From Candidatus Doudnabacteria bacterium RIFCSPHIGHO2_12_FULL_48_16 (GTDB lineage: Bacteria; Patescibacteriota; Doudnabacteria; UBA920; O2-02-FULL-48-8), in assembly GCA_001780035.1 (NCBI GenBank), contig MFEY01000004.1, forward strand, positions 81,405 to 145,404: DNA of 64,000 nucleotides, in the 5' to 3' direction. This document shows, piece by piece, positions 18,668 through 40,812 of this stretch; position 1 is the stretch's first letter; every line of letters starts with the position of its first letter. A program made the translations under genes and the position numbers. The notes below the pieces were generated by a model. The model was not told the DNA's origin, searched no databases, and saw only the letters and a list, made by a program, of their open reading frames with translations.

Positions 18668-18711
18668 GGGTATAAATGTCTAATATCAAATTTCTAATGA
18701 CTAACAAAATG

Positions 18712-19017
18712 TTAAATGCTTAATTCTTTAATTTTATTAGCTTTAGATTTCTTTATAATAGCAACAAATATTAAAGTTAATTCGTTTGTTTCTTTCATAA
18801 GCTCTGTCGCTCTATCTTTTAATTCGGGAGTCGTGGTTATGAGCATTCTTAACCAGTGCTTCGTTTCTTTGGATTCTTTTTTACAAATCCCTAATTTATG
18901 CTCGAAATCTTTTCTAGTCTCTGCACAATCTGCCTCACAATAATTCGCTCCCACGCTAGTGCCAGATTTCACCAGCTGCCCAATTATTGGCAAAGTAACA
19001 ACATCTTTTGGGATCAT
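18712..19017 (-). CDS. four-helix-bundle protein (23S rRNA-IVS / Avd-like family). The N-terminus has no canonical start codon.
   Basis: It contains SVGANYCEA...RKDF...ICKKESKETKHWL. Family-typical sequence (DLEERTARFGEEIIKFAR) continues in frame upstream to a stop at 19111-19113. There is no ATG, GTG or TTG in between. Confidence 0.55.
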   Translation of the reverse strand: MIPKDVVTLPIIGQLVKSGTSVGANYCEADCAETRKDFEHKLGICKKESKETKHWLRMLITTTPELKDRATELMKETNELTLIFVAIIKKSKANKIKELSI

Positions 19018-19121
19018 CCTCGCGAATTTTATAATTTCTTCTCCAAATCTCGCCGTTCTTTCTTCTAAATCATAAACTTTATCGTTAGAAATTTTATTAG
19101 AAATTAGGCATTAGTAATCAG

Positions 19122-19865
19122 TCATTCTCCCGGACTCAAGTCGAGATCGCCGATGCTTTTGATCTTGATAGGTGAAGCCGTATTCAGGTTGTAACTGTTA
19201 TACATTAATTCCACCAGCTCTTCGGTGCTTAAAACCAGGGATTTAAGACTCATACCTCCCATGGCGCCGGCAACCTGGCTGACCCGCTTCATGAGTTCTT
19301 CCCGGCTTTTGTCAAAATCAGTTTGTTTTACGGAAATCTCGCGAGCCGGGCTCAACAGATTCATGATTTTCGACATGAATCCGGTTTTCCCGCCGCCGGC
19401 GATCAAAGGTATGATGACGTAAAAAGTTTTATTCATAATGCTGGCAAACTCAATCAGCTTGCCGACGTATTCGATATATTCTTGAGTTTGCAAACGCAAC
19501 AGCTCATTGGTTTGCTGCTGCATCACCGATCTCAACTTGTCCAGATAGCTATGGATATCAAGCTTTCTTGACTGCATTAAGATCTGGATTGGAAATTCCA
19601 GCGAATTTAAAAAATTCTGGTAGGTCGCAATCAGGGCATTTTGTTCCTCGCCGCTCTTTAAAGAAAAATTGACTGACGAGACCACAAGCACCGCCCGCAG
19701 CGAACCATCCTTGAGGACCACAACGCCTTCCTTGATCTCTTTGATATCCAAATACGCCTGGGTCGATGCCGAAGGCTTGTTCCCCGTCATAGAACTGGAT
19801 TGCATCTCTTGCTGGTTCATATTAAGTGTTGTGAGCTGCGTGACCGACCAACTCTTCCTCTTCAT
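19122..19865 (-). CDS. hypothetical T4SS-associated protein (VirB4 N-terminal-domain-like)
   Basis: The motif YLDIKEIKEGVVVLKDGSLRAVLVVSSVNFSLKS...FLNSLEFPIQI resembles the VirB4/TraC N-terminal region. Confidence 0.3.
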   Translation of the reverse strand: MKRKSWSVTQLTTLNMNQQEMQSSSMTGNKPSASTQAYLDIKEIKEGVVVLKDGSLRAVLVVSSVNFSLKSGEEQNALIATYQNFLNSLEFPIQILMQSRKLDIHSYLDKLRSVMQQQTNELLRLQTQEYIEYVGKLIEFASIMNKTFYVIIPLIAGGGKTGFMSKIMNLLSPAREISVKQTDFDKSREELMKRVSQVAGAMGGMSLKSLVLSTEELVELMYNSYNLNTASPIKIKSIGDLDLSPGE

Positions 19866-20265
19866 GGACTTTTTGGTCGAGCAAATAGGCTAATTTTTTC
19901 AAGCGGCTCTCCGGAGCTTCGATAGTGGTTCGTAACTGCGGCTGTTCCTGTTGCTTGGCAACTTTTTTGATTGTGATGATCGGTTCGACCCGATGAAACA
20001 CCCGGACATGGGGTTTGGATAAAAAATTTATAAAAGCTCCGATAAAACCAACCATGGGCCGGCCGTTAAATTTAGCGAAAGCCAAGGCCAGGCCCAATAC
20101 GGCAAACGGGAAGGAAAAAAAGAAAAAGAATACTGAAATTTTTAAAACTGAATAAAATAAGAGGATGATCCCGCCGGTCAGCAATAAAATCAAGAATTGC
20201 TTGAGGGTCAACGGACCGATCAGTTTATCCTCGACATCGGTAAATTGAGGGATGGCATACTGCAT
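19822..20265 (-). CDS. small two-TM membrane protein, VirB3/PrgI-like candidate
   Basis: Two hydrophobic helices (FLILLLTGGIILLFYSVL and AVLGLALAFA) followed by a charged tail. It lies upstream of the VirB4-like gene. Confidence 0.35.
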   Translation of the reverse strand: MQYAIPQFTDVEDKLIGPLTLKQFLILLLTGGIILLFYSVLKISVFFFFFSFPFAVLGLALAFAKFNGRPMVGFIGAFINFLSKPHVRVFHRVEPIITIKKVAKQQEQPQLRTTIEAPESRLKKLAYLLDQKVHEEEELVGHAAHNT

Positions 20266-20292
20266 GAAATATTGAATATGAATTATGAACTA

Positions 20293-20655
20293 TTAAAGAT
20301 TTTTAATAGTTCCCATTAACATTGCGCCAATTTTTTTCGAAAGCGAACTGGCGTTTTCGTACTCAGGTTTAGATATTAATCCTTCAGCAAACGAAAACTC
20401 GATAAGGTATTCGGATTCTTTTAGTGACCCGAACGATATTAGTAAAAAATTTTTGTGACTTTTGTCGCTCATGCGGGCATAACCCTCAATGTAATTTAAA
20501 ACCACAGAAAGACTCGCTCGTCGTAATTGAGAAATTATCCCATATATCTCATTTTTCGGAAATTTACGGGTTAAGGCGTAAATAAAATGGGCAAAATTGT
20601 CCATTTTTTGCCGTAATTGCTGATGGAAAATCATATTTATTTTAGTTTCAAGCAT
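20293..20655 (-). CDS. four-helix-bundle protein (23S rRNA-IVS / Avd-like family)
   Basis: Roughly 120 aa with a four-helix-bundle pattern. Family assignment is by similarity to the other copies, and confidence is moderate. Confidence 0.55.
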   Translation of the reverse strand: MLETKINMIFHQQLRQKMDNFAHFIYALTRKFPKNEIYGIISQLRRASLSVVLNYIEGYARMSDKSHKNFLLISFGSLKESEYLIEFSFAEGLISKPEYENASSLSKKIGAMLMGTIKNL

Positions 20656-20722
20656 TTTGATTTATATTTCAAATTTCATCCTTTATACTTCAAACATTAT
20701 ACCATAAAGGGCAAGACTTATC

Positions 20723-20749
20723 AAAAAAGCCCGGACGGGCTTATTTTAT
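20723..20749 (-). terminator. Rho-independent terminator (bidirectional)
   Basis: GCCCG-ga-CGGGC flanked by an A6 run and a T run. It sits immediately after the PIN gene stop. Confidence 0.6.
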
Positions 20750-21181
20750 GAAGTTTGAGAGCCAATTTACCCACCCCTCGCCTTCATCCTCCCAAATGCT
20801 CCAGAATTCCGCCGGCCGGACAATCCGCACCCCATGATACTTTTCCAATTTCAACAGATGCAAATCCGACGTGATCAAATAGTCTGCGCCGCTTGCTACG
20901 GCTGACTCTAAAATTTTATCGTCCTCAGGATCTTCCACAATCCGCAATTTCTCGCCCGTTGCCACGGGTTGGACGACTTCGAAAAAATATTCCAGCTTTT
21001 TAAGATAACCTTCGTCCGAAATTTTTCTCCGGGCCAAAAATTTATTTTCATTCAAGGTTGCCCGATTGGCGTAAGCCATAATCTGGTTGGCGATCACCAA
21101 ATCCAAGATTCTGTTTGCATACCGGTAATAATCTTCCGAAGCATCAATCAGCACATTGGTATCAATCACGACTTTGAGCAT
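20741..21181 (-). CDS. PIN-domain nuclease (VapC-like)
   Basis: VIDTNVLID at the N-terminus. Acidic residues in DPEDDKILESA and YLITSD match the PIN catalytic arrangement. Confidence 0.7.
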   Translation of the reverse strand: MLKVVIDTNVLIDASEDYYRYANRILDLVIANQIMAYANRATLNENKFLARRKISDEGYLKKLEYFFEVVQPVATGEKLRIVEDPEDDKILESAVASGADYLITSDLHLLKLEKYHGVRIVRPAEFWSIWEDEGEGWVNWLSNFIK

Positions 21182-21312
21182 GAGTTAAAAATGACTAATT
21201 ACTAATTTCTAATGACAAATAAAATTTTAAATTAAAAATGTCTAATGGTTTAATCATTGAGACATTATATCATTTTATTAGAAATTTGTAATTGGAAATT
21301 TGACATTCCGAC

Positions 21313-22614
21313 TTATAGCCGTTCTATTTCCTTCCGCAAATCCGCCATGGCCTCAAACTCGGCTTGGGTCATTTCTCCGGCGGCACCAGAACCGACCACC
21401 TTTGAATTGCCGTGAGCCATGTATGATTTGAATAAAGGGCTTTGTTCAAAAGCCGTGACCGCATAGTAAGGCAAAACATTGTTGGCTCGGGCCAAATTAG
21501 AAATTAGAGATTTTAAATTGGAAATTTGCGACTGCAAACTTCCTTGGCGCAAAAAACTCAAGTCAAGTTTTTTTAGATCATCGATAGTTTGAATCACTGA
21601 CATACGCGGACTGGACGCGGAATGCGGTGGACGTGTCTCGTCTTTGCGAGCGGCCATTTGACTAAGCACTGCTGTCGATGGCCGCGAAGCAATCTCTGAT
21701 TTGTGCCCGGGCAATTCGACGGTCTTGACTTCCCGTTGTATTTCTTGCGGAGTCATGGATATGGCCGGTTGAGGCTTGGGAGTAAATTTAACCGTCCCGG
21801 CTTGCATTTTGGCCTTAAATTCCTCCAAGGGAGCGCCGTGCGGAATTGGTGGCTTGCTTATGATCGGAAAAGCAATCTTCGGGCTAGTGGGCACGGGAGG
21901 GGTTGGGCGCAGAATCGACGACTGGGGGGTTCTTTCCACCACCGGGATATTCTTGGGATATTTAAGGTGATTATACACAGTTAGAATATTGGTGAGGAGT
22001 TGCCGGTCAGCCATGCTTAAGGTTTTCACATTGGGACTTGAATAAAAATACTGAGTCATCTCATAAGTCCCGGTTCTCAGTTTGGCCGGATCGGAATAGC
22101 TAATATAATCTTTCAGCCAATTGGCTATCGAGCCGATGACCTTGTCGCCCGATTTAAGGATCAAGGCTTGCGGGCCCAAAATTTCCTGATTACGGATTAA
22201 AGCGTCAATGAACATCTGACGTTCTCCGGCATCAGGGCCAATGCCCAATTCAAACATTCGCAGATACCGCTCCAAGCAATAGACGATGTCAATTTGCTTT
22301 TTGATTGACGGAATCACATTGCGCACCAAAATCCGCTCCTTGATTTTTTTGGTCTGATTTTGCAAAGACTGCCATTCCAGGGTTGATAAAACCACAAGCA
22401 GCCGGGCCGAAATATTTTGGTTCCGGATTGCTTTGCTGTTCTCTAAGAGTTTGGCCAACAAATCATAAAATTCCCTGGCCAAACCTGGCTCATAATTATA
22501 CATCGGATCCGCGGCAATTTTTTCGATCTGAATTATAACTTGCTGATTATTCAACTCATCCGGGGTCAGATGGTCGAGATCCTCTACTTGTATATTTTCT
22601 ATTTGAATGGTCAT
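21313..22614 (-). CDS. hypothetical protein (T4SS locus)
   Basis: A 433-aa ORF. Its stop overlaps the upstream gene start by 4 nt (ATGA), suggesting translational coupling. Confidence 0.35.
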   Translation of the reverse strand: MTIQIENIQVEDLDHLTPDELNNQQVIIQIEKIAADPMYNYEPGLAREFYDLLAKLLENSKAIRNQNISARLLVVLSTLEWQSLQNQTKKIKERILVRNVIPSIKKQIDIVYCLERYLRMFELGIGPDAGERQMFIDALIRNQEILGPQALILKSGDKVIGSIANWLKDYISYSDPAKLRTGTYEMTQYFYSSPNVKTLSMADRQLLTNILTVYNHLKYPKNIPVVERTPQSSILRPTPPVPTSPKIAFPIISKPPIPHGAPLEEFKAKMQAGTVKFTPKPQPAISMTPQEIQREVKTVELPGHKSEIASRPSTAVLSQMAARKDETRPPHSASSPRMSVIQTIDDLKKLDLSFLRQGSLQSQISNLKSLISNLARANNVLPYYAVTAFEQSPLFKSYMAHGNSKVVGSGAAGEMTQAEFEAMADLRKEIERL

Positions 22615-25600
22615 GGTCTGATTGGGTTACCTTCCCTGTCGATAGGGTTACCTCGGGCGTCAGTAAGAAAAGGTGCGGCTGGCGGCGCGGGCGGCTGAGG
22701 AACTTGAGCGCGCTGTTGTTGGCCGCCTCCTCCACCATCTACATTCTGTGCGCCTTTGGCTTGAGCGGCTTTCTTCATTACAAAAGAATAATTAAAATCA
22801 ACCGCTCTGTCACCATCCACGAAAACTTCTCTTTTGGCCGGGTCAGACTCGTAATTCAGATAAAGTTTCATGGTGGATAGCCCGCCTCTTTGGTTCTGGG
22901 GCAATCCCAATTTTTCCGCATACAACACTTGGGCCTGATCTCTCTGGTGAGTCCACAAATTCTGAACTTTTCTCAATTCATCGGAATTGTTAATGATCAG
23001 CCGGCCGTCATGCGTAACTTTCGTGGCCAGTTGGGTATCCTTAACCCGTGGTTGAATGTTCTGCACGCGATCCAGAGTTACCGGATCATTCATCAAATTA
23101 TTCTGCTGATCATAAAAGGCCTTCGAGGCGTCTGTGATATCGGTGGCACCCCAGTAAGTATTTCTGATTTCTTTACCATCGGTTCGAACATCAAACATCA
23201 GCTTGCCGTTAGCATCCCGCTTCTGCTCAGGCTCGGTAAACATCAGCTCGCCGGTATTCGCATTCCGCTTCTGCTGCCCGGTCGCCTCATCCATTATTGG
23301 TTTGACCGTCGTTGGATCCATGATCGGAGTTTTGCTCGTAATGATTTTTCCATCTGCATCCAACTCACCCATAATCGGCGCCAGACCGTGGGGAGCCATA
23401 GTGACCAAATCATTGACCTTTTTCTTGCTAAACTCACCTTTGGCATAATCGGCCTGATGAGTATTATCAAGTGTCTTGATCTTATGGCCAAAGCCGTTGT
23501 CTCTTTCCGGCCCGACTTCCTTCATGCCCTCTTCCCACATGCTGGTATCTGGATTGAAGAAAGTGTGTCCCAAGTATTCCGGATGATTGGTATTTTTGCC
23601 CATATCCTCCATATCTTCTCCGATAAACCGCATGGCCTGCTCGCCTTTTCCCAAATAAGTCATTAATAACCGGTGAACGGTGTCCGGGCTATTAATGGCC
23701 ACTGACTGGGTGCCGTCGGGGTGCGTGATTTTCTCTCCATATTTTTCAGTAAAATGCTTCATTCTCATTAAATCATCAGTAAAGCCGTTGGCCGCGACTG
23801 CCTTCATTATTGCCAACCGGGTCGTTTCCCCTTCATGGCCGCCGATACCTTCGGCTTCGACCGCCAGCTGCATCAACTGCTCTTTCTTCATATCGGTCAA
23901 AAACTTCAGCTTTTCATTTTCCGCTCGTCGTTCGACCAATTGCGCATGCGGTAGGGTCGTGCCGGTCCATAAGCGTTCGGCGATTTGTTGGCCATAAGCG
24001 GTGGCGAGCTCTGTTTGATGGTGAGCCAGTTCTTCGCCTCTTTTCGAAAAACCCTTATACGTGCCGACTGGATTAAGCGCGGCATAAGCAAATCGGGCCA
24101 GTTTGCTCGGCTTCTTGCCGCCTTCCGTATGCAGCAATTTGCCCGTGGCTTCGTTATATTTTCGGCCGGCAAAACGGCCCATCCCGTGGCCAATCCCCTT
24201 TAGGGCTGCTGTAGCCGTTCCTTGCACCCCATGCACAATCATCTCCCCGCCCACCATGCCGGCTTCCTTGGCCACCAACAATGACGCGGCCAGAAATGCG
24301 CATAAAATCCAAAATTTAAACGAGGTGTTCTCCGCTCCGGTAATCGCAAATCGCGGGTCGTTGGCGACCAGGATGGTCAACCGGATCATAAACATGGCCA
24401 CCGGCGCCCAGATTAAATATTTAACAAAATGGCTCCACCACTCTTCCGAATATTTTTCCGTAGCCGGCAAAATCCGGGCCACATAAGCCACCGGCGAAAA
24501 AATGATCAGGACATAGAGCCCGACCAGCCGGATAATAAACATCGCGGCCAAAGCCAGATAAACCACCAGCCCCACGATCGCGTAAGCGATCTTGCCAAGA
24601 CCCAGGGCCAAACCCTCCTGCCAGCTGACATTGCCGCTGAATAACTCCTTAAAATCCAGCACGCTGAAAATCGCGCCCATGACCCCGTCGAGCCCATTGC
24701 CGCGGAAAATCAAAGCCAACAAATTGACCGCCTTCATGATCTCGACCGCGATAACCTGGCTAAAGTTAACCAAAATTGCCATGATGACCAGGTGGCCGAG
24801 CAAGTGGCGATAATCATAACTTTCGATATGCAAAATCGCAGCCAGAGCAATCACAATCAAAATGATAATAAAGAACATGTTGCAGATATCGCGAACGATT
24901 GCCCAACCGATATTGACCGCGGCAGGCATGGTCGAGATATCCAGGGCCGCTCCGGATGCATACGAGAACACTTCCGCCGCCAAGGCCGTCAAAATCGAAA
25001 GAGCGGAGGCCACGACGGACAAAACCATATTTAAGATCCAGCCAATGAAATCCCCACCGGCTGAAGCGCCCACGATCTTACCAACGTTCGCTTTCTGTTT
25101 GGTTGCCCATTGATCTTGAGTAAATGTAGTCCCTAAGACCAATTTAGTTTGAAAATTAAGAGCCAAGGTGCTTCGGGCGAGCTTGCCGTCTTTATTCCAA
25201 AATCCATTGGTGTCTACTTGGACAGTGCCGTCGACCACCTCACAAATTGTCGTGGGACGTTGGGCGTTAATCGGTCCGGTTAACCCTTGTCCCAACGCGG
25301 CTTTGAGATCCCCACCGGTTACTATGCTGACCAATCTGGACAATATATCGCAATTGGCCTTGCTGGCCGGGTTATTGGCAGCGTCAAAATCAGTTTTTGT
25401 AACTTTTACTGCCGGCGTCTTGGCGGACGGCGTCCAGGTTCCGCCCGCTGCAATGCAACCCTTTTGCCAACGATCAGGACCCGTACCGACCGGAGCCACA
25501 GGGGATGTTGCACCAGTGCAGGTCCCGTCGTCCGAAACCTGGGCAAACGCCAAATTCGCCAATGCAAAATTAGCGAGCAGGACAAGTGCTAGCAGTTGGA

Positions 25601-25631: not shown

Positions 25632-25708
25632 GGGGGTTTAAAATTTCAAATGTCAAATTACAAATGTCAAACAAAATACTTAGTTTTGAAATTTGTTATT
25701 TGTCATTT

Positions 25709-27820
25709 CTAACATGGCGTATTAGTGAGGTAACACGCGTCGGCCGGATCACCCGGGTCAATCGGGGCGGAATAATGGACTCCCGGATCACCGGATGGCG
25801 GCATCGGCAGCCAGGCCGGGATATTGGTTTCGCTGACGCTGCCCAAGATATCAACTCCAGAATTATCGGGATAGGAGAACACGTCGGCAGAGAAGCCGTT
25901 GCATTGACTGGTATGGTAAGTGACCGTCAGCCCGGCGCCTTCTCCCCGCAGGGCCCAGGCGACGCGTTTGACGATTTCAAATCCCCCGCAATAGCTGTTC
26001 AGGGCAATGCCTTTGGATTCGACGTATCGTTTGACATTGGCGACCAGCTCCGTGCGATCGGCGGACTTGCAGGCAATGTTGTCCGGCTCATCGACGCAAG
26101 TCGGACCGTCTTCGTCGCCTTCATCGCCCGGATCAATAATGTCCGGCGGAACCACCTCCCCGGCCGCCTGGACATTGGGGTTGTCGCACCGGCCAATGGC
26201 TGCTTTGGTGTCCTTCAAATATTGAAGCATATCCTGGTTGCTCTGAATCAGAGCACCCAAGCCGCCGCCGCCGTTGCCGCGCAGGCGGGAGAGATCCATG
26301 TCCTGATCCTTCTGGATCGATTGGCTCATTTTCGACAGGAAATGCTGATAGCGGCTGATCGCAATTTCCATATTGTCGAAATAATTGCTCCGGTAATTTT
26401 GAATATTGTTAAGCAGGTTATCGATCGCCGAATCCGCCAGACCGGCGCGGCGGGCCCAGATATCAGCATCAGACTTGTTTACAAAATTGTCGCCGTCCGG
26501 CTTGATATGATCTTTGTGCGTCAAAATAAAGTCGTTAAATTCGGCCAGCGCGGCTACGGCCTGATCCAGGGATTGGCAGATCGGCGTAAAATAAGGCGAG
26601 GTTTTGACTTCGCTGGATTTTTTGCAATTCGGCGCCGTGCCGCCGTGGTAACAAACGTCGGAGATAGTATTGAGCTGATTGTCGCCGTCGACGTCCTGGC
26701 CCTCCGGAATATTGTCACCATCCAGATCAAGATCCCGAATCAGCGGCGCCACGCCGTTATCGGCTTGATAGCCGCTGCCGGATTCGTTAAAGGTCCCGCC
26801 GGATTTGGTGAGGTTTAATTTATTAAAAATGAAACTGCCCAGCAGCGACCCGATGGTGCTGTAGAGATTGTCATGGAGGCCAAAGTTATCCTGGAAGACG
26901 GTCTGAATCGCATTCGTGGCAAAATTATGGATGAACGCGGATGGATTCTGAATGGCGGACTGAGCAATCCCGGTGGAATCAACTTTCCACTCCCCGCCGG
27001 CGAGGATGCAATCTGACAGATTGGTAATCGGCTGCTTGGGATAATAAAAAGTCTCAGCTTCAGGATCGGACGGATCCGACGAATAGATTTCCGGATAGGA
27101 GAACTGGACGTTGGTGCAAATGCGCGGCACAATCCCGGTCGGGGTCGAGCGGTCGTTTTTCAACCCCTGGCTGTTGGCAGTTTCCGACCCGGCCGCTTTC
27201 TCCGAATCGGCGACCATGCGGCCAAACTCCCCATACAACTCTTGCTGGGTAAAATCCGGCGGACTGGAAAAATATGCCCGCGCCGCGGCAAAATAATACT
27301 TATCTTCCACGAACGCCCCATTTGGATTTAAAATCCGGTTGGAGTTGATGCCGCCCCGCTCGTAATAAAATTTATCGATTTTTTGCCGCAGCGCAGCCAT
27401 CAACGGCTTGCTGTTGCCCGAAGAGTCCGTAACCGTGGCGCGGTTATTGATGTCGCGGGCCAGCAATCCATAAATGGCGCGCAGATCGGGATCCGAAACA
27501 TTGTCGTATATATATTTATTCAAATAATATCCGGACAAGACTTTGTCGTAAGCCAGATAATCCTTAATCCGATATTTATCAATCAGTTTGTCGACAAATC
27601 TAGTCAGATATTTGTTAGCATAGCTGATGGCGATTCGCTGCGCGGCCGCCAAGCCGATGTCTTTGAAAACATCATACCAGTTGGCCACCTCGGTATTGAA
27701 TGTAAAGTCGCCGACGCCGAATAGCGCTTCAGCTGGCTTGGGTTTGATCACGAAAAACTGCCCGCCAACCAGTGAAATTAGGACCAAGCCTATGGCAATT
27801 TTTCGAAAAATCATTTTCAT
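25709..27820 (-). CDS. large secreted protein with a Cys-rich C-terminus
   Basis: Signal peptide (IAIGLVLISLVGG), acidic DxDGD-type motifs and 14 Cys residues in the last 150 aa. Confidence 0.4.
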   Translation of the reverse strand: MKMIFRKIAIGLVLISLVGGQFFVIKPKPAEALFGVGDFTFNTEVANWYDVFKDIGLAAAQRIAISYANKYLTRFVDKLIDKYRIKDYLAYDKVLSGYYLNKYIYDNVSDPDLRAIYGLLARDINNRATVTDSSGNSKPLMAALRQKIDKFYYERGGINSNRILNPNGAFVEDKYYFAAARAYFSSPPDFTQQELYGEFGRMVADSEKAAGSETANSQGLKNDRSTPTGIVPRICTNVQFSYPEIYSSDPSDPEAETFYYPKQPITNLSDCILAGGEWKVDSTGIAQSAIQNPSAFIHNFATNAIQTVFQDNFGLHDNLYSTIGSLLGSFIFNKLNLTKSGGTFNESGSGYQADNGVAPLIRDLDLDGDNIPEGQDVDGDNQLNTISDVCYHGGTAPNCKKSSEVKTSPYFTPICQSLDQAVAALAEFNDFILTHKDHIKPDGDNFVNKSDADIWARRAGLADSAIDNLLNNIQNYRSNYFDNMEIAISRYQHFLSKMSQSIQKDQDMDLSRLRGNGGGGLGALIQSNQDMLQYLKDTKAAIGRCDNPNVQAAGEVVPPDIIDPGDEGDEDGPTCVDEPDNIACKSADRTELVANVKRYVESKGIALNSYCGGFEIVKRVAWALRGEGAGLTVTYHTSQCNGFSADVFSYPDNSGVDILGSVSETNIPAWLPMPPSGDPGVHYSAPIDPGDPADACYLTNTPC

Positions 27821-27923
27821 CCCGTTAGAAATAATGATTAGTTAAATAATTAATGTTTTTGATAATCAACCCGTTGGAGTATAATTTGTCTGATGTTTTG
27901 CTATGTAAAATTTCTAACGGGAT

Positions 27924-28853: not shown

Positions 28854-28950
28854 TGAACAATAAGACCCGGGCAGGCCTTACTCTCTCATTATTGATTGTT
28901 TTTGGGCGTTTTTGTTTTTGTTTCGAACTTTATCTCAAACTTGTATATAT

Positions 28951-28979
28951 ATTATAGCACAAAAAGCCGAACTTGTCTA
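28951..28979 (-). promoter_or_regulatory. sigma-70 promoter TAGACA-17-TGcTATAAT
   Basis: The reverse complement of 28951-28979 gives the -35, a 17-nt spacer and an extended -10. A nearly identical module lies downstream of the paralogous 4HB gene at 40309-40337. Confidence 0.5.
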
Positions 28980-29029
28980 GCCCAAAAAGAACGAACAGCG
29001 TTGAGCGTGCAGCGTAGAGAAAGGGCTAC

Positions 29030-29383
29030 TTAATTTTTGAGCTTGAAGATCATTGAATAAAGCATTTTTTGTACTTCTTCTAACAAGGCTTCTGCCCTAA
29101 AGTAATCAATATTAGAATACTGTTCTTTGGAAATAACAACCTGAGTTTCCAGTTCCGCAGCTGAACCCATAGCAATGCCCAAAAACTGAATAAACTCCCT
29201 CTGGTGATTCCTTCGATATCCTTCCGCGATGTTCGACGGGATTGCAACTGCTGCTCTTTGCATCTGAGAAACTAATCCATACATTTCAGTCTTAGGCATT
29301 TGTTTAGTGGCTGAATAGATCTCGTTTACGAGCTTAATTGCTTTTTGCCAAACTATAAGTTCTTTGAATGAATTTACTTTCAT
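29030..29383 (-). CDS. four-helix-bundle protein (23S rRNA-IVS / Avd-like family)
   Basis: MKVNSFKELIVWQKAIKLVNEIY...QMQRAAVAIPSNIAEGYRRNHQREFIQFLGIAMGSAAELETQ is a textbook family signature. Confidence 0.75.
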   Translation of the reverse strand: MKVNSFKELIVWQKAIKLVNEIYSATKQMPKTEMYGLVSQMQRAAVAIPSNIAEGYRRNHQREFIQFLGIAMGSAAELETQVVISKEQYSNIDYFRAEALLEEVQKMLYSMIFKLKN

Positions 29384-29393
29384 AAATTTTAAA

Positions 29394-30314
29394 TTAATTA
29401 TTTTCTGAACGCTGTCCGCTGTACGCTACACGCTTATAGAGTTCCACCCACTGTTCGATCTTCAAATCCTGGGGGCGAGTGGTCGGCTCAATCCCCGCTT
29501 GTTTGAGTAATTGCCATGTCTGCTCTTTGTTCATTTTCAAGCCGTTGGCCAGGGTGTTGTGAATCTGCTTTCGTTTGCCGGCAAAAGCAATCTTAACGAT
29601 GCGGAAAAAAGTTTTTTTGTCTTTGATCTCCGGATATTTGTCGCGCGGCGTGATTTTTAAAACCACGGAGTCAACTTCCGGCTGGGGCCAGAAACTTTCC
29701 TTGGGCACGCTCAGGACAATTTCAGCGTCGGCGTAAATCTGCACCGAAATCCCCAGAATGGAAAGTTCGCCCGCGCTAGCTGTCACCCGCTCCCCCACTT
29801 CCTTCTGGACCATGAGGACCATCGAGGTTGGTTTGTTTGCCATTTCCAGAAAAGTTTGTAACAGTTTGCTGGTGAGGTAATATGGAATGTTCGCCACGAC
29901 TTTATAATCGCCGGTAATGTGCTCAGAAAGATTGAATTTTAAAATATCTAAATTAAAAACTTTGTTTTTCTGCAACCCCGAACCTTGTCCCGGACTCCGA
30001 TCCGGGATTGATTCGGGGTCTTTTCGACGAGATCCTGAATTAAATTCAGGATTGCGCCGCAGCAACTCCGCCAACTTTGAATCCTTCTCGACCGCGATAA
30101 CTCGCCCCGCTCGTTTCACCAGTTCAAAAGTCAACACGCCCAACCCCGGGCCGACTTCCAAAACCACATCGCCCGGCTGCAGCTCGGCCGCGGCCACAAT
30201 CCCCTGCAAGGCAGCTTGGTCAACCAAAAAATTCTGACCGAGATAATCGCGAGGTTTCAAGCCGTGATGTTTTAAAAAAGTTTTAAGATTTTCTACGTCT
30301 ATGAGATTATTCAT
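29394..30314 (-). CDS. rsmA: 16S rRNA (adenine1518/1519-N6)-dimethyltransferase RsmA/KsgA, with a roughly 25-aa in-frame insertion
   Basis: SAM-binding motif LEVGPGLGVLT, and NIPYY. The insertion EFNSGSRRKDPESIPDRSPGQGSGLQ is encoded by nested palindromes. Confidence 0.85.
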   Translation of the reverse strand: MNNLIDVENLKTFLKHHGLKPRDYLGQNFLVDQAALQGIVAAAELQPGDVVLEVGPGLGVLTFELVKRAGRVIAVEKDSKLAELLRRNPEFNSGSRRKDPESIPDRSPGQGSGLQKNKVFNLDILKFNLSEHITGDYKVVANIPYYLTSKLLQTFLEMANKPTSMVLMVQKEVGERVTASAGELSILGISVQIYADAEIVLSVPKESFWPQPEVDSVVLKITPRDKYPEIKDKKTFFRIVKIAFAGKRKQIHNTLANGLKMNKEQTWQLLKQAGIEPTTRPQDLKIEQWVELYKRVAYSGQRSENN

Positions 30315-32445: not shown

Positions 32446-32824
32446 AGTCTAACCATTATAACCCAGCCTTCGAATTAAGAATAACGAATTATGAATTAGG
32501 GTATTTTCCATAATTCCTCATTCCTACTTCCTTATTCCGGCTTGTGGATAAGAACATTGACCAAACCGGCCGGGTCTGGTAAAATTGACCCTAGTGATTT
32601 CGGACGTAACGGATCCCACAGTTAACCCCACAATTTGGCTTATATAAGGTTTTTTTGTGAGTAATTTCGTATGGGTAAAGTAAGCTTTTGAGTGGGTTTA
32701 AAAGGCGACTATTATTTTATCTATTTATCAAAAATTTGCCTCTCTCTGCATCCGGCTGGCAACGAACTGGAAAACCAACGGCAAATTTACAATCCATCCG
32801 TTCAAATCCCTGCATTCTCGGCAC

Positions 32825-33982
32825 TTGCTGCCTTTGTCTATTGGGGACTACGCGGCGCGTTTCAGTCTCGAGCTGGTGCTGGTCGGTTTGACCATTGCCG
32901 GCATCTGGGCCAATGTTCTCGTCACTCATCACGCTTCCACTTCCAATCCGGACCAAAGCGTGATTTTTTCATTCTTAAAATCGCATCCCGGCCTGAACCG
33001 CAAACTGCTTTCGGCCGCGGACACAACCACGATTTTCTCCAAATCCGACCAGCGCTTAACCCTCTCCTCGCAGTCTTTGGGGGTGGTCCTGGCCGCACAG
33101 CCGGTGGACACCAATCCTCATGCCACTACGGCTTCCACCATGCAGGACGATGTCATTGTTAAAACCAACCCGTCGGACACTCAAGGGGTCCCCCGCAACG
33201 GCTTTACCACTTATCAAGTCCAGCCCGGCGACACGCTCATCGATATCGCCTCCAGCTTCGGAGTTTCCCCCCAGACCGTGATGCTGGAGAACAAAATTAC
33301 CGACGACCGGCAGCTCAAAGCCGGCCAGGATCTGACCATTCTGCCGACGACCGGCATCAGCCATACTGTCGGAGAATCAGATTCCTTGGAATCCTTACTG
33401 GCCAAATACAAAATCTCTGCCGATGACTTTTTGGATGCCAATAACATTGAGTCCTTCGACGACTTGGCCATCGGCACCGACATCGTAATCCCCCTGCAAA
33501 ACGTCACACTCCCCGCTCTGGTCAAACCCGCAGCCAGGTTTGTCAAAGACGAAAGCAATAAAATCGCCCTCAAACAAGCCTCTGTTCCAGCCGACTTCCT
33601 GGGCGCCGCACTTGATTTTATCTGGCCGACTCCGGTCCGCACAATCACCCAGGGCTTCTCCAAACGCCACACCGGCCTGGATATTTCCGACAGCAAAAAG
33701 GAGCCGGTTTACGCGGCCTGCACCGGATTCGTGGAAATCTCAGGATACCAGGCTAACGGCTACGGCAATAATATCGTCATAAATTGCGGCAGTGGATTCA
33801 AGACCCGCTATGGCCATCTTTCCGAACTTTATGTTTCAGCCGGTGATTATGTGACCAAGGGACAATTGATCGGCAAACAGGGCCGCACCGGCCGCGTCCG
33901 CGGCGCCACCGGCATTCACCTGCACTTTGAGGTCATCAAAAACGGCGTCCGGGTCAACCCTCTAAGCTACGTCAAACCATAA
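32825..33982 (+). CDS. LysM-domain M23 family metallopeptidase
   Basis: LysM repeats (YQVQPGDTLIDIASSFGVSPQTV). M23 motifs HTGLDI...GHLS...GIHLHFEV. The true start is uncertain. Confidence 0.7.
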   Translation: MLPLSIGDYAARFSLELVLVGLTIAGIWANVLVTHHASTSNPDQSVIFSFLKSHPGLNRKLLSAADTTTIFSKSDQRLTLSSQSLGVVLAAQPVDTNPHATTASTMQDDVIVKTNPSDTQGVPRNGFTTYQVQPGDTLIDIASSFGVSPQTVMLENKITDDRQLKAGQDLTILPTTGISHTVGESDSLESLLAKYKISADDFLDANNIESFDDLAIGTDIVIPLQNVTLPALVKPAARFVKDESNKIALKQASVPADFLGAALDFIWPTPVRTITQGFSKRHTGLDISDSKKEPVYAACTGFVEISGYQANGYGNNIVINCGSGFKTRYGHLSELYVSAGDYVTKGQLIGKQGRTGRVRGATGIHLHFEVIKNGVRVNPLSYVKP

Positions 33983-34034
33983 ATAGTGGCATATAAAAAT
34001 CCTCCGGCATGCCGGAGGATTTTTGTTGTTTAGT

Positions 34035-34436: not shown

Positions 34437-34483
34437 ATTTTTAGTTAATTATTTATTAATTAGTTAATTATTTATTTTATGGA

Positions 34484-36634: not shown

Positions 36635-36636
36635 TT

Positions 36637-39600
36637 TTATGGCGCGACTTCCCGGAAACTCGGCACCTGGCCTTTGTTCTTATTCACGATAATCGTCGGC
36701 GCGCAGGCGATTTTGGATCGTGCCTCGCTATCCGTATAATAAACTACGCCGCAGTTGGTGACAATTTCCTGCGATCCGCTGCTGGCACTGGCAGTAAAAG
36801 TTGCATCAAATGTCACCAGCCAGTTGTTGGCGATATTTTTGATACCGCTGACATTGAATCTTAACCCGGAATTACCGCCAGCCAAACAGGCGGCATTGTT
36901 TTGGCTGATGCCGGAGCTAGCTGAGCCGCTGCCGCTCACGCTCAGGTTTCGGATATCCGTCAGATTGCCGCTGGCGTTGTCGCAGATGTAATTAACCGTG
37001 GCGTTCGCCGGACCGTCGTTGACGATGGTGATTTGGTAGGTCAGAGTATCCCCGTCTTTGATCACGGTAGTCCCACTATAGGCTGCGCCATTGACCCTGA
37101 TCAAGGCTTTGGATGAAGATGAGAGGTTGGCAACACAGGCCACATTCATGGCATTGGCGCTGCCAGAATAAGCTTCCAACGGATCAATAACAACGCCGCG
37201 GTGCGCGCTGACGCGATAATAATACCGGACATTGGTCTGCGGAGGTGTATCTTGGTAGGAGCGGACACCGGTGCCGAGCAACCCCGAGATCGGACTGCCC
37301 CAGGTAGCGCCATCTATAGAGCGGTAAACATAAAAGCCATTCTCTACGCCATTGTTACTGTAGCTCCAGGTCGTCGTAATGGTCTGGCAGGGAATATTGC
37401 TTACTGAGACACCGGTAGGCTCATTCAATGTCAGAGCTGTATATGTGATGCCAAACACCAGGCTCGCCGAAGCAGTGACTGTAAAATTCGCACTGTCGCA
37501 CCAGACAAACCCGGCAGATCCGTTCCAAAGGTATACGTGGACGTTGACCCCGCCGGTGCCCGGATGAGCGGACATGGGAATATCGTAATACCATTGATTG
37601 CCGCTGAGGATATTACCCTCATACCAGATTAAATCGTCTTGCCCCCCTGTATCAGTCCAGGCTGGGAAATAAACCATTCCGGTATTGCCACTGACACCGT
37701 TGGCAAAAGTCCGACGGGTGGATTGGGCGGTGGAAATGCTGTCGCTGTCCGGAGTAGCTGAAGTGCAAGTCATCCCCGAAGGAGCGTTAACGTTCACTGT
37801 CACGCTGGCAGTGGCAGCACCGTTATCGCAATTGACCGTGTAGGTGGTGGTAGCGGTGAGATTTCCAGTGCTGTTACTGCCCGAAGTCCCGGTCCACCCA
37901 CCGGGTGAAACCGAACAAGAAGTAACATTAGCCGAACCCCAAGTGATATCTGCCGCAGTGTTGTTGGAAATAGTAATTGAAGTCGGTTGGCCGTTGGCTT
38001 TGATCCAGACTGTGGGACCGGCTGGTGGAACGGTGACATTGAAATTCGCCGAGTCGCACCATTGATTGCTGAAATTAGCATTGGTCATGTAAACATGAAC
38101 ATTGACGTGGCTGGCTGGCAGGTTCCCGGAAACGGGAATATCCACGTACCATTCATTGCCGCTTAGGATCGCGCCTGGGTACCAAACGGCACCGGCCCCG
38201 CCTTGGGCATCAGTAAATGTCGGGAACCAGACATTTGTCGCGTTGACCACGCCATTGGCATAGGTGCGCCGGGTGGGGGCGGTTGTATAAACCGAATCCT
38301 CATCTGGGGTGGCGGATGTGCAAGTCGGGGCCGTAGGAGGGGGTGGCGCAGAATTCACGTCCACAGTCACGCTGTCCGAGGCTGAGCCTCCTGCGCCAGT
38401 GCAATTGACTGTATAAGTAGAAGCGGCGGTAAGATTGCCCGTGCTTTGACTGCCCGACGTGCCGGTCCAGCCGGTTTGAGCAACTGTGCAGGAACTGGCA
38501 TTGGTCGAGGACCAAGAAACTGTGCTGGCGGTATTGTTATCAACCGGGTTCGGATTGGCGGAAATTGATGCGGTGGGAGCTACCGGCGGAGGGCCGCCGC
38601 AGTTTGCCTGGGTGGCGCTGATACTAAGAGTATTTGAAGAAGTGGTGCTGCCACTGGGGTTGCTGGCAATTATATGGTACTCATAAGTTTGATTCTTCGA
38701 AACGCTATCAGCGTATTGATCGAGCTCGGCATATGTCAGGTTGGATGCCACCACTGCCCACGAACCGCTGCCCTGCCTTCTTTCAAGCGTATATGTGACC
38801 GCACCCGAAGATTGACTGCTGTTGACTTCGACTTCCGGGTTGGGCCAGTTGAAACAGGAAAGATTTGTAAGGCTAAAGGCTCCGGGCGGACTGCCGCCGG
38901 ATGATTGGACTGTCACTATCGTATCCCAGGTGCGAAAATCTTCTCCGCCCATACGGGCCGGCCCAGCAACTCGCAGACTAAAAATATATGTGCCGGGAGT
39001 ATTTAAAGCTATGGGCAAACTCCAGCTCTCAGTATCCTCCGGCATACCGTCGCTGTCATCCCAGAAACCACCGATGCCGTTTGGCCCCTCCATAAACATC
39101 TGGCGGCTCGGCACAGTCCCAGTGGTCGTCCAAGAAAACTGCGGTGACACTCCGGTCGCAATCGAAGGAGTAAGAAGACTAGAGCTGTCCAAACTTGTAA
39201 ATTCGCGGCGATGCATTGTCCATTTGACTTGCACGTCATTTTCGTTGAAAAATGTTTGATGAACCTTGAGCCTGACTACCAAATGAGAATAGTAAGTGTA
39301 GTCCAAAGAATCAATGCCGCCAGTAACGATTGAAGGGCTTCCAGTATCATCTCCCGGTGAGCCTTCATATGTTTGGACTGTATTGCAAAAGCCGTCGCCC
39401 CAGGCCGATGTGTTATTGACACAAAATTCGATACCCGGGGAGGGATTGTCGTTTTGCAAAATTTGCCAGTCAATTTGATAAACCTGGCCCCAATTGCCAG
39501 GAAAGACAGATAAAAATAAAGCTGTGACCGGGTCATTCCTTCCATCAGAAGAAAGTCCGGTTGTGACGGTTTTGGTCGTGCCATCGGACCCCTCTGGATC

Positions 39601-39759
39601 GGGCTGCGGCGGATCGTCTTCCTGGCAGGTATCGGTAAAATCCTGGTTCGGCGGCGGGCAATCGCCAGCAGCGTGAACCCGATGCGGGCTGATCAAATAA
39701 ACGCCGACCAGAAGCGGAATTAAAAATAATAAAACTTTAGTTGAATTGTTGAGCTTCAT
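36637..39759 (-). CDS. secreted surface protein, paralog of 34484-36634 (Ig-like repeats, three QDD..WY domains, fibronectin-like modules)
   Basis: Signal peptide. Repeated SWSSTNASSCTV...YTVNCTG modules. QGGAGAVWYPG and GGQDDLIWYEG domains. Confidence 0.5.
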   Translation of the reverse strand: MKLNNSTKVLLFLIPLLVGVYLISPHRVHAAGDCPPPNQDFTDTCQEDDPPQPDPEGSDGTTKTVTTGLSSDGRNDPVTALFLSVFPGNWGQVYQIDWQILQNDNPSPGIEFCVNNTSAWGDGFCNTVQTYEGSPGDDTGSPSIVTGGIDSLDYTYYSHLVVRLKVHQTFFNENDVQVKWTMHRREFTSLDSSSLLTPSIATGVSPQFSWTTTGTVPSRQMFMEGPNGIGGFWDDSDGMPEDTESWSLPIALNTPGTYIFSLRVAGPARMGGEDFRTWDTIVTVQSSGGSPPGAFSLTNLSCFNWPNPEVEVNSSQSSGAVTYTLERRQGSGSWAVVASNLTYAELDQYADSVSKNQTYEYHIIASNPSGSTTSSNTLSISATQANCGGPPPVAPTASISANPNPVDNNTASTVSWSSTNASSCTVAQTGWTGTSGSQSTGNLTAASTYTVNCTGAGGSASDSVTVDVNSAPPPPTAPTCTSATPDEDSVYTTAPTRRTYANGVVNATNVWFPTFTDAQGGAGAVWYPGAILSGNEWYVDIPVSGNLPASHVNVHVYMTNANFSNQWCDSANFNVTVPPAGPTVWIKANGQPTSITISNNTAADITWGSANVTSCSVSPGGWTGTSGSNSTGNLTATTTYTVNCDNGAATASVTVNVNAPSGMTCTSATPDSDSISTAQSTRRTFANGVSGNTGMVYFPAWTDTGGQDDLIWYEGNILSGNQWYYDIPMSAHPGTGGVNVHVYLWNGSAGFVWCDSANFTVTASASLVFGITYTALTLNEPTGVSVSNIPCQTITTTWSYSNNGVENGFYVYRSIDGATWGSPISGLLGTGVRSYQDTPPQTNVRYYYRVSAHRGVVIDPLEAYSGSANAMNVACVANLSSSSKALIRVNGAAYSGTTVIKDGDTLTYQITIVNDGPANATVNYICDNASGNLTDIRNLSVSGSGSASSGISQNNAACLAGGNSGLRFNVSGIKNIANNWLVTFDATFTASASSGSQEIVTNCGVVYYTDSEARSKIACAPTIIVNKNKGQVPSFREVAP

Positions 39760-39777
39760 TATTGAGCTATATAAACT

Positions 39778-40275
39778 TTATAATGCCTGGAACGATTCCA
39801 AGAAATTTTCCACGCTCTGATCCATCTTGGCCGGCTGGCCGGGCGAGATTTCAAAAATTATTTTGCGGCCATCAGGCGCTTGCCACAGCAAATCGGTAAA
39901 CGTTACGGTCGAAGCGGCTCGCCCCTCCATGGCCGGCACTTGCCTTTCGATATCGACGCGGATCATGGTTTTGCCGCCAACTGTTATCTGACGGCCTTTA
40001 TCAAGACCCAAAGCCTCAATGATACTTTCGGGGTATTCGATTTTCACCAAAATGCTGGGTTTCGATGAATCCGCGGCATTTTCGCTAACCCGAACATAAC
40101 CTTGGGACGGCGAAGCGAGCCAGGTTTCCGGCTTCTCAAAACTGACTTTATTGGTCTGATCTATGTAAGGCTGATAAACCAGCGGAGCGGGACTTTGATT
40201 GCGTAAATAGAAAAAAGCCCCTGCTACAAGGACTAAAATTACAATTATGGAGATAACTGTGACCTTTAGTTTCAC
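39778..40275 (-). CDS. membrane-anchored hypothetical protein (GTG start)
   Basis: The promoter at 40309-40337 lies inside the longer ORF. The first in-frame start after it is GTG, giving MKLKVTVISIIVILVLVAGAFFY. Confidence 0.4.
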   Translation of the reverse strand: MKLKVTVISIIVILVLVAGAFFYLRNQSPAPLVYQPYIDQTNKVSFEKPETWLASPSQGYVRVSENAADSSKPSILVKIEYPESIIEALGLDKGRQITVGGKTMIRVDIERQVPAMEGRAASTVTFTDLLWQAPDGRKIIFEISPGQPAKMDQSVENFLESFQAL

Positions 40276-40308
40276 TTTTGTTTCGATCGTCTTTCTGAAT
40301 TTGAATAT

Positions 40309-40337
40309 ATTATAGCATATATTCGACAAGTGCGCAA
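40309..40337 (-). promoter_or_regulatory. sigma-70 promoter TTGCGC-17-TGcTATAAT
   Basis: This is a paralog of the promoter at 28951-28979. Confidence 0.45.
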
Positions 40338-40378
40338 CTCTTTGAAAGCGTGGGGCGTTGAGCGTACAGCAGAGAGGT

Positions 40379-40699
40379 TTATTTATCCTTAAGCTTTGAA
40401 ATCATGACGTAAAGCATTCTCTGTATTTCATCTAAAAGCGCTTCAGCTTTGGAATAATCGATATCCGTATATTGTTGCTTACAAATAATAAGCTGGGTCT
40501 CGAGTTCAGCAGCTGATGAAATGGCAATCGCTAAAAATTGTATAAATTCTGCTCTATGATTTCTCCTATAGCCTTCTGCAATGTTCGAAGGAATTATAAC
40601 GGCAGCCCGCTGCATTTGCGAGGATAGACCATAAATTTCATTGACCAATTCAATTGATTTTTGCCAAACAATGAGTTCTTTGTACGAATTTAGTTTCAT
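40379..40699 (-). CDS. four-helix-bundle protein (23S rRNA-IVS / Avd-like family). Paralog of 29030-29383 with an internal deletion of about 9 aa.
   Basis: MKLNSYKELIVWQKSIELVNEIY...QMQRAAVIIPSNIAEGYRRNHRAEFIQFLAIAISSAAELETQ. The start was moved to an internal Met (MKLNSYKEL) by homology with 29030-29383. Confidence 0.65.
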   Translation of the reverse strand: MKLNSYKELIVWQKSIELVNEIYGLSSQMQRAAVIIPSNIAEGYRRNHRAEFIQFLAIAISSAAELETQLIICKQQYTDIDYSKAEALLDEIQRMLYVMISKLKDK

Positions 40700-40812
40700 A
40701 AATATTTTAGTTATTTTTCTCAACGCTCTACGCTTGGCAATAAAAAACAGGGAGCGACGCTTGTGCATCACTCCCCGCAAACAGACGAAGGTGGCCTGAC
40801 CGCAAGATCAGA

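Follow-up and report, generated by a model that had tools for sequence, protein, structure and literature searches.

A 64,000-nt stretch of Candidatus Doudnabacteria bacterium RIFCSPHIGHO2_12_FULL_48_16 (contig MFEY01000004.1, positions 81,405 to 145,404; called the window below) was analyzed for its genes of four-helix-bundle (4HB) proteins. Four such genes were present, all on the minus strand (18712-19017/19110, 20293-20655, 29030-29383 and 40379-40699; named D, C, A and B, respectively). Each was bracketed, directly outside its open reading frame (ORF), by inverted arrays of tandem 7-nt units, and each had a unit of its own. The sites of all four were empty in related Candidatus Doudnabacteria genomes (4/4), and the four copies are insertions relative to those genomes. 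On balance, the genes are probably the ORFs of self-contained insertion cassettes, of the same kind as the ORF-bearing intervening sequences (IVSs) of 23S rRNA and lying in mRNA contexts, with the arms as the likely processing stem.

Four cassettes and their insertion sites

In profile searches, all four ORFs matched PF05635 (48-120 bits against the Pfam cut-off of 33.8) and TIGR02436 (70-120 bits against a cut-off of 24), which agreed with the four genes recognized in a preliminary description of the window. A six-frame scan of the window with the family profile gave no fifth 4HB gene and no 4HB remnant in the ORF-less loops at E<1. The GxxRxxxSxxxNxxE motif described for the PF05635/S23p family (PMC3936711) was found in the window proteins; in their alignment, Q40, N51 and E54 were invariant and R43 and G55 nearly so, with K for R in copy D. 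The closest solved structure to the protein of gene A was XCC0516 of Xanthomonas campestris (2GSC, E 2.6e-18), and 2RLD was a second solved structure homologous in sequence. A pentameric four-helix-bundle fold of the window proteins is predicted through sequence homology to these two structures. The isoelectric points of the window proteins, 4.9-9.5, were uninformative on nucleic-acid binding. The protein of gene A was also found on 24 public contigs (including GCA_001777855.1 and GCA_001777635.1), which were 99.98-100% identical to the window and therefore held no comparative information.

Genes A and B had been called close paralogs, and their proteins were indeed 76% identical. The internal deletion of B relative to A was 36 nt (12 aa) and not 9 aa as first counted. 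With an identity of 76%, the two are apparently not recent copies of one another. In gene D, a further 31 codons (93 nt) ahead of the first ATG stayed in an open frame without any ATG, GTG or TTG, as had been noticed before; they encoded helix-1 sequence. Its product in the public record has 126 aa, which corresponds to an ATT start codon at 19092-19090.

The repeated unit is a 5' heptamer array, the ORF and a 3' reverse-complement array, and the cassette consists of the arms and the ORF only. It is about 0.42-0.45 kb long, with 2-4 tandem units in the 5' array and a short spacer before the PF05635 ORF. In cassettes A and B, the units were AGCGTNN in the 5' arm and NNACGCT in the 3' arm. The pattern AGCGTNNAGCGT, searched at one mismatch or less, had 9 matches in the window against 2.6 expected (0/100 shuffles reached 9), and 8/9 of these flanked genes A and B. 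Hence, the AGCGT/ACGCT pentamers at 7-nt spacing that the preliminary description had pointed out were real and specific to the two paralogs, rather than spread at a similar density through the window. It had restricted the flanking repeats to these two copies; all four were bracketed, each by its own units. The 5' array of cassette A was translated as the last 12 codons of rsmA, a C-terminal tail ending in ...ELYKRVAYSGQRSENN*, and a repeat of this copy had correctly been placed there. No known RNA family covered the arms or the hairpins, and the Rfam matches in the window were one tmRNA and three tRNAs.

The rsmA site was compared with two syntenic Doudnabacteria loci found via RsmA homologues (L107 and L108), with the order LysM/M23, UvrD, RsmA, 310-aa gene. 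In L108 the site was empty: rsmA ended in ...YQKISHTG*, and its TAG stop lay inside the -35 element TAGACA of TGTGCTATAATATATATACAAGTTTGAGA. In L107 it held an ORF-less hairpin composed of GGGGCGA GCGCCGA GCGCCGA G, a 25-nt loop and TCTACGC TCACCCC TCGGCCC TCAGCGC. This hairpin retained CTCAAAAAT.AAG, the last codons and stop of 4HB gene A, together with CTCTACGCT, the start of the 3' arm of A, and a deletion derivative of the cassette is therefore its best reading. The site of cassette B was empty in L109 and L110, both of which had the terminator, a spacer of about 20 nt and a homologous TTGCCC...GAATATATGCTATAAT promoter. The sites of cassettes C and D were empty in L111, L112 and L113, where the PIN_3, prgI, traC-like and virB4-like genes were adjacent and the gap between the traC-like and virB4-like genes was 9-20 nt. 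Furthermore, another Doudnabacteria genome had an AGCGT-type cassette 70% identical to A with a tRNA_edit gene on one side and scpA on the other, which indicates that related cassettes occupy different sites.

The promoter-like sites reported beyond the stops of genes A and B were present, but they had been taken as part of the cassette. The promoter after gene A, including TGTGCTATAATATATATACAAGTTTGAGA, was found both at the empty site L108 and at the ORF-less site L107, and the promoter after gene B had its homologues in L109 and L110. Because they stood at empty orthologous sites, both are resident host sequence outside the cassettes, and the module is not a unit of about 0.5 kb with a promoter. 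The proposal of a small cassette rather than independent genes held more strongly than it had been made, whereas its extent and the recent copying did not. Cassette C was inserted downstream of a resident promoter, TTGATA-17-TATAAT (conserved as TATGGTATAAT), and replaced the prgI 5' UTR. In general, the window cassettes have no promoter of their own and are always co-oriented with their neighbours. The sequence TCGAAACAAAA, found downstream of both A and B, matched the lineage-typical GAAAC[AC]AAA just before start codons in L111-L113. The coordinates of all features are listed in Table 1.

Table 1. Positions of the 4HB genes, cassette arms, neighbouring signals and ORF-less hairpins in the window
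Feature	Position	Strand	Remark
4HB gene A (117 aa), cargo of cassette A	29030..29383	-	PF05635 120 bits, TIGR02436 120 bits
4HB gene B (106 aa)	40379..40699	-	76% identical to A; lacks 12 aa where helix 1 ends
4HB gene C (120 aa)	20293..20655	-	PF05635 91 bits; PIN_3-prgI site without it in L111, L112, L113
4HB gene D	18712..19110	-	Open frame from 19110; no ATG/GTG/TTG before 19017
5' arm, cassette A	29409..29434	-	Four heptamers AGCGTGT AGCGTAC AGCGGAC AGCGTTC; empty site L108 without it
3' arm, cassette A	28997..29019	-	Three ACGCT units: CTACGCT GCACGCT CAACGCT
5' arm, cassette B	40720..40736	-	AAGCGTA GAGCGTT GA; directly after the intrinsic terminator of the upstream gene
3' arm, cassette B	40347..40372	-	CTGCTGT ACGCTCA ACGCCCC ACGCT
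5' arm, cassette C	20656..20688	-	GATGAAA TTTGAAA TATAAAT; downstream of resident promoter 20724-20696
3' arm, cassette C	20266..20292	-	TAGTTCA TAATTCA TATTCAA TATTTC; abuts the prgI start codon at 20265
5' arm, cassette D	19093..19121	-	CTGATTA CTAATGC CTAATTT CTAATAA; from just past the traC-like stop codon into the start-less N-terminus
3' arm, cassette D	18676..18704	-	ATTAGAA ATTTGAT ATTAGAC; ends 8 nt before the virB4-like ATG at 18667
AGCGT-type units, gene A	28997, 29004, 29011	+	AGCGTNNAGCGT pattern search
ACGCT-type units, gene A	29409, 29416 (CCGCT), 29423, 29430	+	Plus-strand reading
AGCGT-type units, gene B	40347, 40354 (GGCGT), 40361	+	Plus-strand reading
ACGCT-type units, gene B	40723, 40730	+	Plus-strand reading
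Intrinsic terminator upstream of cassette B	40778-40747	-	
Resident promoter of the downstream 309-aa gene (after cassette A)	28979-28951	-	TAGACA-17-TGcTATAAT, 11/12, with TG
Resident promoter of the downstream 165-aa gene (after cassette B)	40337-40309	-	TTGCGC-17-TGCTATAAT (TGcTATAAT)
ORF-less heptamer hairpin, intergenic gap	25635..25713	-	Fold z-score -2.4
ORF-less heptamer hairpin	32469..32540	.	82.5% identical to the hairpin at 55006-55067
ORF-less heptamer hairpin	55001..55074	.	Copy of the 32472-32530 hairpin
ORF-less heptamer hairpin (GCGGATTA CGCATTA CGGATTA / complement)	55267..55320	.	Fold z-score -5.2
ORF-less inverted array pair, CTAAT/ATTAG type as in cassette D, loop of about 50 nt	21183..21308	-	Fold z-score -3.6

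Some further observations were made at these sites. Cassette A contained the 9-mer TCAGAAAAT (29397-29405) between its 5' arm and its ATG. The same 9-mer was present at the empty L108 site (3844-3852), where it lies in a different rsmA reading frame; the sharing is either a coincidence or a hint of host sequence kept inside cassette A. RsmA itself (29394-30314, minus strand) had an insertion of about 27 aa (EFNSGSRRKDPESIPDRSPGQGSGLQ...) at residues ~90-125, which most homologues lacked, and a few other Doudnabacteria had unrelated sequence there. The GAAAC[AC]AAA motif was located 0-70 nt upstream of start codons, at the place expected for a Shine-Dalgarno sequence (28916-28926, 40276-40286 and before prgI in L111-L113), and may be a lineage-specific translation-initiation region. 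On the viral contigs L123, L127, L132, L140, L141, L145 and L146, a TAnnTTTG-like motif stood in the spacer that separates the 5' arm from the 4HB start codon, about 10-40 nt upstream of the ATG. We take it to match the Bacteroidetes-type -7 promoter element, and in this lineage, unlike in the Doudnabacteria copies, the arms may enclose a promoter that belongs to the cassette.

Arrays around relatives and the predicted stem

The relatives surveyed comprised 20 genome loci (mostly Patescibacteria), 80 metagenome loci and 34 viral-contig loci, with a pooled external set of n=115. Random positions in the same loci served as controls for periodicity and complementarity, and the threshold was the control 99th percentile. 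In an earlier test, the duplex energies of 70-nt flanks were set against those of random positions in the window; GC heterogeneity made the null too broad for the test to be informative, and lag-7 and complementarity scores took its place. The flanks of relatives had 3-9 heptamers before the start codon and the reverse complement after the stop; in the extreme case, L051, TAGGGAC/TAGGGAT x9 was paired with CCCTAAT x9. Lag-7 periodicity was above the threshold on at least one side at 58/97 loci, compared with 1-6/97 for lags of 5, 6, 8 and 9. Inverted complementarity of the flanks (upstream against the reverse complement of downstream) was above it at 54/97, and direct similarity at 7/97. In the pooled external set, a 5' array was detected at 75 loci (65%), a 3' array at 62 (54%) and both at 49, of which 43 were inverted and 4 direct. 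With a strict threshold, arrays on both sides were found at 12/98 loci and at 0.05% of random positions in the same loci.

The arms had a fixed polarity. The 5' arm contained more G than C in 68 loci and the reverse in 6, and the 3' arm more C than G in 58 against 4. The heptamer consensuses were of 69 distinct types among 75 cassettes, and arm agreement of at least 6/7 was reached in 65% of comparisons within a cassette and in 3.3% between cassettes; that is, the two arms of one cassette covary at the level of the unit. In addition, heptamers with a stop triplet, which would halt translation in all three frames, were modestly enriched, with 64% against 47% expected in 5' arms and 47% against 27% in 3' arms. 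No paper tying PF05635 genes in general to flanking inverted heptamer arrays was found, the literature searched being incomplete and a prior description possible. The only literature found that noted heptamers upstream of S23p was a paper on the Coxiella IVS (PMC4990558).

For the 461-nt RNA of cassette A (28985-29445, minus strand), both the minimum-free-energy and the centroid folds placed the ORF inside a stem of the 5' and 3' arms, with 4+6+4+6+5 bp and 2x2 loops every 7 nt. On this model, the arrays of each cassette would pair in the transcript into a stem of about 25 bp that closes off the ORF, built of 4-6-bp helices with 2x2 internal loops at every seventh nucleotide. Having no promoter of their own, the cassettes would ride on host transcription; the host contexts were the final codons of rsmA, immediately 5' of the next gene's promoter, a terminator-promoter gap, the prgI 5' UTR and the traC-like/virB4-like gap. 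By analogy with the IVSs of Coxiella, Leptospira and Salmonella, the stem is probably the processing site of a double-strand RNase (RNase III). Cleavage in the stem would detach the cassette RNA from the host RNA, and operons and rRNA could thereby tolerate an insertion. If the ORF is lost, ORF-less heptamer hairpins would remain, and such hairpins are numerous in this genome.

In helix 45 of the 23S rRNA of Coxiella burnetii, the S23p ORF of the IVS is preceded by 3-4 tandem GACAGAT, the number of which varies between strains (PMC4990558). This IVS has a 28-bp terminal stem and is excised by RNase III in vitro, and rapid amplification of cDNA ends maps the 5' cut to the first repeat (PMC4990558). 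Moreover, PF05635 ORFs have been described in 16S and 23S insertions of candidate phyla radiation (CPR) bacteria (10.1101/2024.02.27.582315). The window cassettes were similar to rRNA IVSs (Coxiella, Leptospira; PMC4990558) in the protein family, S23p being PF05635, and in an ORF enclosed by complementary terminal sequences able to form a stem. As in Coxiella, the stretch directly 5' of the ORF held tandem purine-rich heptamers; tandem heptamers were found there in all four window copies and in 75/115 relatives. A poor or absent ribosome-binding site, ORFs prone to decay and a sporadic distribution suggesting horizontal spread were also shared. However, the window cassettes were located between or at the ends of protein genes (rsmA, prgI, traC-like, virB4-like and hypothetical), and the Rfam scan gave no rRNA in the window, so that their location is not an rRNA helix. 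The near-perfect 28-bp stem of Coxiella also differs from the interrupted heptamer arrays of the window arms. RNase III cleavage has been demonstrated for the IVS, whereas for the window cassettes we infer it, as we do stem formation in vivo and any role of the 4HB protein in mobility. The window element is classed here as an S23p-type IVS element outside rRNA, and its heptamer-array arms are a hallmark of the family.

Several results speak against such RNA-processing cassettes. The whole-cassette fold was unexceptional (z=-1.25). The duplex energies of sense and antisense arms were alike (12/23, p=0.47), and G:U pairs thus do not favor an inverted repeat at the RNA level over one at the DNA level. 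A stem interrupted every 7 nt may be a poor substrate for RNase III, and the fixed G-rich 5' and C-rich 3' polarity is unexplained by pairing alone. No target-site duplication was evident at the four junctions, and there is no transposition enzyme in the cassette. At the threshold used, 35-45% of the loci had no detectable array on a given side. Finally, there were also single arrays and arrays that lay within coding sequence (the ORFs of ileS and argS).

Alternative explanations and comparison with other repeats

Heptamer arrays were not confined to the 4HB genes. The window contained 24 lag-7 arrays (30 before merging) against 0.35 expected from shuffles, with 0-2 at lags 8-11. Fourteen of them were intergenic, though non-coding sequence made up 12.5% of the window, and several adjacent inverted pairs folded as hairpins (z-scores -2.4 to -5.2). 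Of the ORF-less arrays at the external loci that stood over 150 nt away from the 4HB gene, 36% shared the local arm unit, compared with 4.9% for the arms of other loci (p=3e-12). In L112 (1879-2047), an ORF-less hairpin (xxCAAAA x6 / TTTTGxx x6) stood in place of the intrinsic terminator after PIN_3, a conventional terminator being present in the window, L111 and L113; the finding suggests that heptamer hairpins can substitute for terminators. Arrays such as (ATTTGAA)x5 and (GAGAATC)x4 also lay in uninterrupted ORFs, in ileS at 46695-46739, 48430-48475 and 48625-48656 and in argS at 51260-51323 and 52344-52379, where they would be translated as peptide insertions.

Heptameric simple-sequence repeats are known from other bacteria, among them the short tandemly repeated repetitive (STRR) sequences of heterocystous cyanobacteria. 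Intergenic examples also include GGGAATC in Xanthomonas and GGGGA(C/T)T in Nostoc (PMC4692102) and TAACTGA in Beggiatoaceae (PMC4679880). Similar to the window arrays, these have a 7-nt unit with a G-rich strand, are mostly intergenic and often just upstream of start codons, differ in length between relatives and are frequently paired in inverted orientation, so that stem-loops can form (70-75 such pairs in Xanthomonas). Unlike them, they were published as free-standing G-quadruplex or regulatory candidates, without a link to PF05635 genes. In addition, one unit dominates in each of those genomes, whereas several occur in the Doudnabacteria window. For X. campestris, 186 GGGAATC arrays have been reported, 70 of them in convergent pairs (PMC4692102), and array #15 (GGGAATCGGGAGTGGAGAATCGGGAATC) lies on the strand of XCC0516 and overlaps its annotated start (PMC4692102 supplement). 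As XCC0516 is the closest solved homologue of gene A and has its own GGGAATC array, it is an independent case of a G-rich array 5' of a 4HB gene with a unit dispersed genome-wide.

The XCC0516 case motivates a reading of the 4HB cassette as the autonomous form of heptamer hairpins. PF05635 genes with inverted heptamer arms would be that form of a widespread element. Its ORF-less derivatives would be intergenic heptamer repeats and hairpins that have long lacked an explanation in many bacteria, namely those of CPR bacteria, the Xanthomonas GGGAATC pairs and, in cyanobacteria, the STRR and GGGGAYT arrays, and a 4HB pentamer would recognize or propagate its cognate arrays. We put this forward tentatively, as a possibility that is likelier to fail than to hold. 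A narrower alternative is that the 4HB protein is a dedicated partner of the arrays, which binds them in DNA or RNA form and helps them to spread or to be maintained; the 4HB cassette would be autonomous and the ORF-less arrays and hairpins its non-autonomous derivatives, and RNA processing would be secondary. The sharing of the local arm type, the excess of arrays over expectation, the two ORF-less hairpins that are 82.5% identical copies and the deletion derivative in L107 are consistent with this partnership, as is the XCC0516 unit, which forms the arrays across the X. campestris genome. Avd, which is homologous to the 4HB family, binds reverse transcriptase and RNA in diversity-generating retroelements (DGRs). 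However, the 4HB fold has no catalytic domain, and the proteins are only mildly basic (pI 4.9-9.5). The window array types GAATTNN and GAGAATC had no matching 4HB gene within 64 kb, and the sharing of types could be due to common descent or local homogenization, not recognition. A dedicated partnership is considered unlikely.

The partnership would be comparable to the repetitive extragenic palindromic (REP) sequences, or their paired form REPIN, and the REP-associated tyrosine transposase (RAYT), a gene flanked in inverted orientation by a short repeat that is also dispersed as ORF-less hairpins. The likeness to the window cassettes is one of arrangement and a resemblance only. RAYT is a Y1/HUH transposase, whereas no catalytic domain can be recognized in the 4HB protein; the arms are tandem heptamers, and REPs are not. 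The only families matched by the 4HB ORFs were PF05635 and its relative bAvd (PF22296, below cut-off), neither of which is a transposase. Transposable elements of the miniature inverted-repeat type (MITEs) and their autonomous insertion sequences are similar in having full-length and ORF-less forms with the same arms, and the internal-deletion derivative at an orthologous site (L107) fits that picture. They differ from the cassettes, which had no transposase, no visible target-site duplication and no conservation of arm sequence between copies.

The arms could also be sites at the DNA level, that is, hairpins or cruciforms in single-stranded DNA for a recombinase or transposase encoded elsewhere, like integron attC sites or IS200/IS605 ends, with the 4HB gene as a passenger. 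The complementarity of the arms was Watson-Crick without sense-strand bias, the sites were polymorphic for presence and absence, and the insertions were very tight against neighbour genes, all of which would be expected of such sites. Unlike in integron cassettes, however, the cargo was always of the same protein family, with its orientation fixed to the arm polarity (68:6). A sequence-specific recombinase would not tolerate 69 arm types in 75 cassettes, and no candidate enzyme was found in the window. DNA-level sites seem a quite improbable explanation.

Very little credence is left for a module of about 0.5 kb (gene, AGCGT/ACGCT repeats and outward promoter) that was duplicated within the genome, possibly as a remnant of a DGR Avd gene. 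Genes A and B have the AGCGT unit in common, plus TGCTATAATATAT and TCGAAACAAAA downstream, but both promoters stood at empty orthologous sites and the shared downstream motifs are lineage-typical promoter or 5'-UTR sequences, so that the empty-site comparison, like the 76% protein identity, already contradicts the duplication. The 4HB genes belong to a family homologous to the DGR Avd proteins (bAvd; PF22296, NF033474) and had weak matches to bAvd and the DGR Avd model. Unlike DGR Avd genes, they were solitary cassettes with scores far below the Avd cut-offs; for NF033474 (DGR Avd equivalog, cut-off 80), two copies scored 30.5 and 24.1 bits and the other two had no match. No reverse transcriptase domain was found among the scanned window ORFs, several of which had no Pfam match at all, and no convincing YxDD motif was seen. 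Self-BLAST of the window gave no template/variable repeat pair near any 4HB gene. The absence of both had been stated in the preliminary description, and a DGR remnant was rejected within the window on these grounds and on the Avd scores. It is just as hard to believe that replication slippage in intergenic DNA produced the arrays neutrally and that their place next to 4HB genes is a coincidence: heptameric simple repeats are over-represented in many bacterial genomes, with slippage proposed as the cause (PMC4679880, PMC4692102), and array copy number differs between Coxiella strains (PMC4990558), but the rarity of two-sided arrays at random positions and the inverted complementarity and fixed polarity of the arms already contradict it.

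The function of the very large PF05635/TIGR02436 family is unknown, and the family owes its name only to its occurrence in rRNA intervening sequences. Similarly, the over-representation of heptameric repeats in bacterial intergenic DNA has been known for decades, and no function has been accepted for them. According to the present results, non-rRNA PF05635 members share the closed-hairpin build of the rRNA IVSs, with fixed-polarity tandem heptamers as arms in most members; the cassettes come and go between close relatives, and ORF loss would leave heptamer hairpins, as L107 suggests. If IVS-like cassettes are confirmed, part of the heptamer-repeat load would have a concrete, testable origin, and the S23p genes would be reframed as the cargo of IVS-like selfish cassettes living in operons as well as in rRNA. 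If the autonomous-element reading is also true, the rRNA IVSs, the scattered S23p genes and the heptameric simple-sequence repeats would be one system. For annotation, such cassettes would explain odd C-terminal tails (rsmA), 4HB ORFs that lack a start codon and the presence of 4HB genes in the midst of operons, for example cas or type IV secretion clusters.

Other repeats and insertions in the window

A dispersed element of about 110 nt, which is unrelated to the heptamer arrays, was present in five copies (78-93% identical) at 49291-49409, 52686-52795, 55688-55787, 56511-56633 and 59304-59363. It looks MITE-like and was located at gene boundaries. Its ends carried inverted repeats, TATAACTCCCCC ... 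GGGAGGGGTTAT, and its interior held two hairpins, CCCCCTCTTACATTAAGAGGGGG and CCTCCCCTTAATGTAAGGGGAGG. Two short dispersed repeats (~50-59 nt, 90-95% identical) flanked the tmRNA gene (53887-54271) and recurred near 45.8 kb, their positions being 45797-45903, 53249-53306, 53675-53724 and 54317-54428. In IleRS (1124 aa, 45911-49285, minus strand), a His_Phos_1 domain at residues 494-652 split the tRNA-synt_1 catalytic domain. The 1346-aa ORF at 59793-63833, which had no Pfam match, contained three internal repeats of about 390 nt (78-83% identical; 61196-61604, 62066-62480 and 63590-63978). Moreover, two perfect palindromes were found, one of 30 nt at 33995-34024, between convergent genes ending at 33982 and 34035, and one of 26 nt at 8787-8812.

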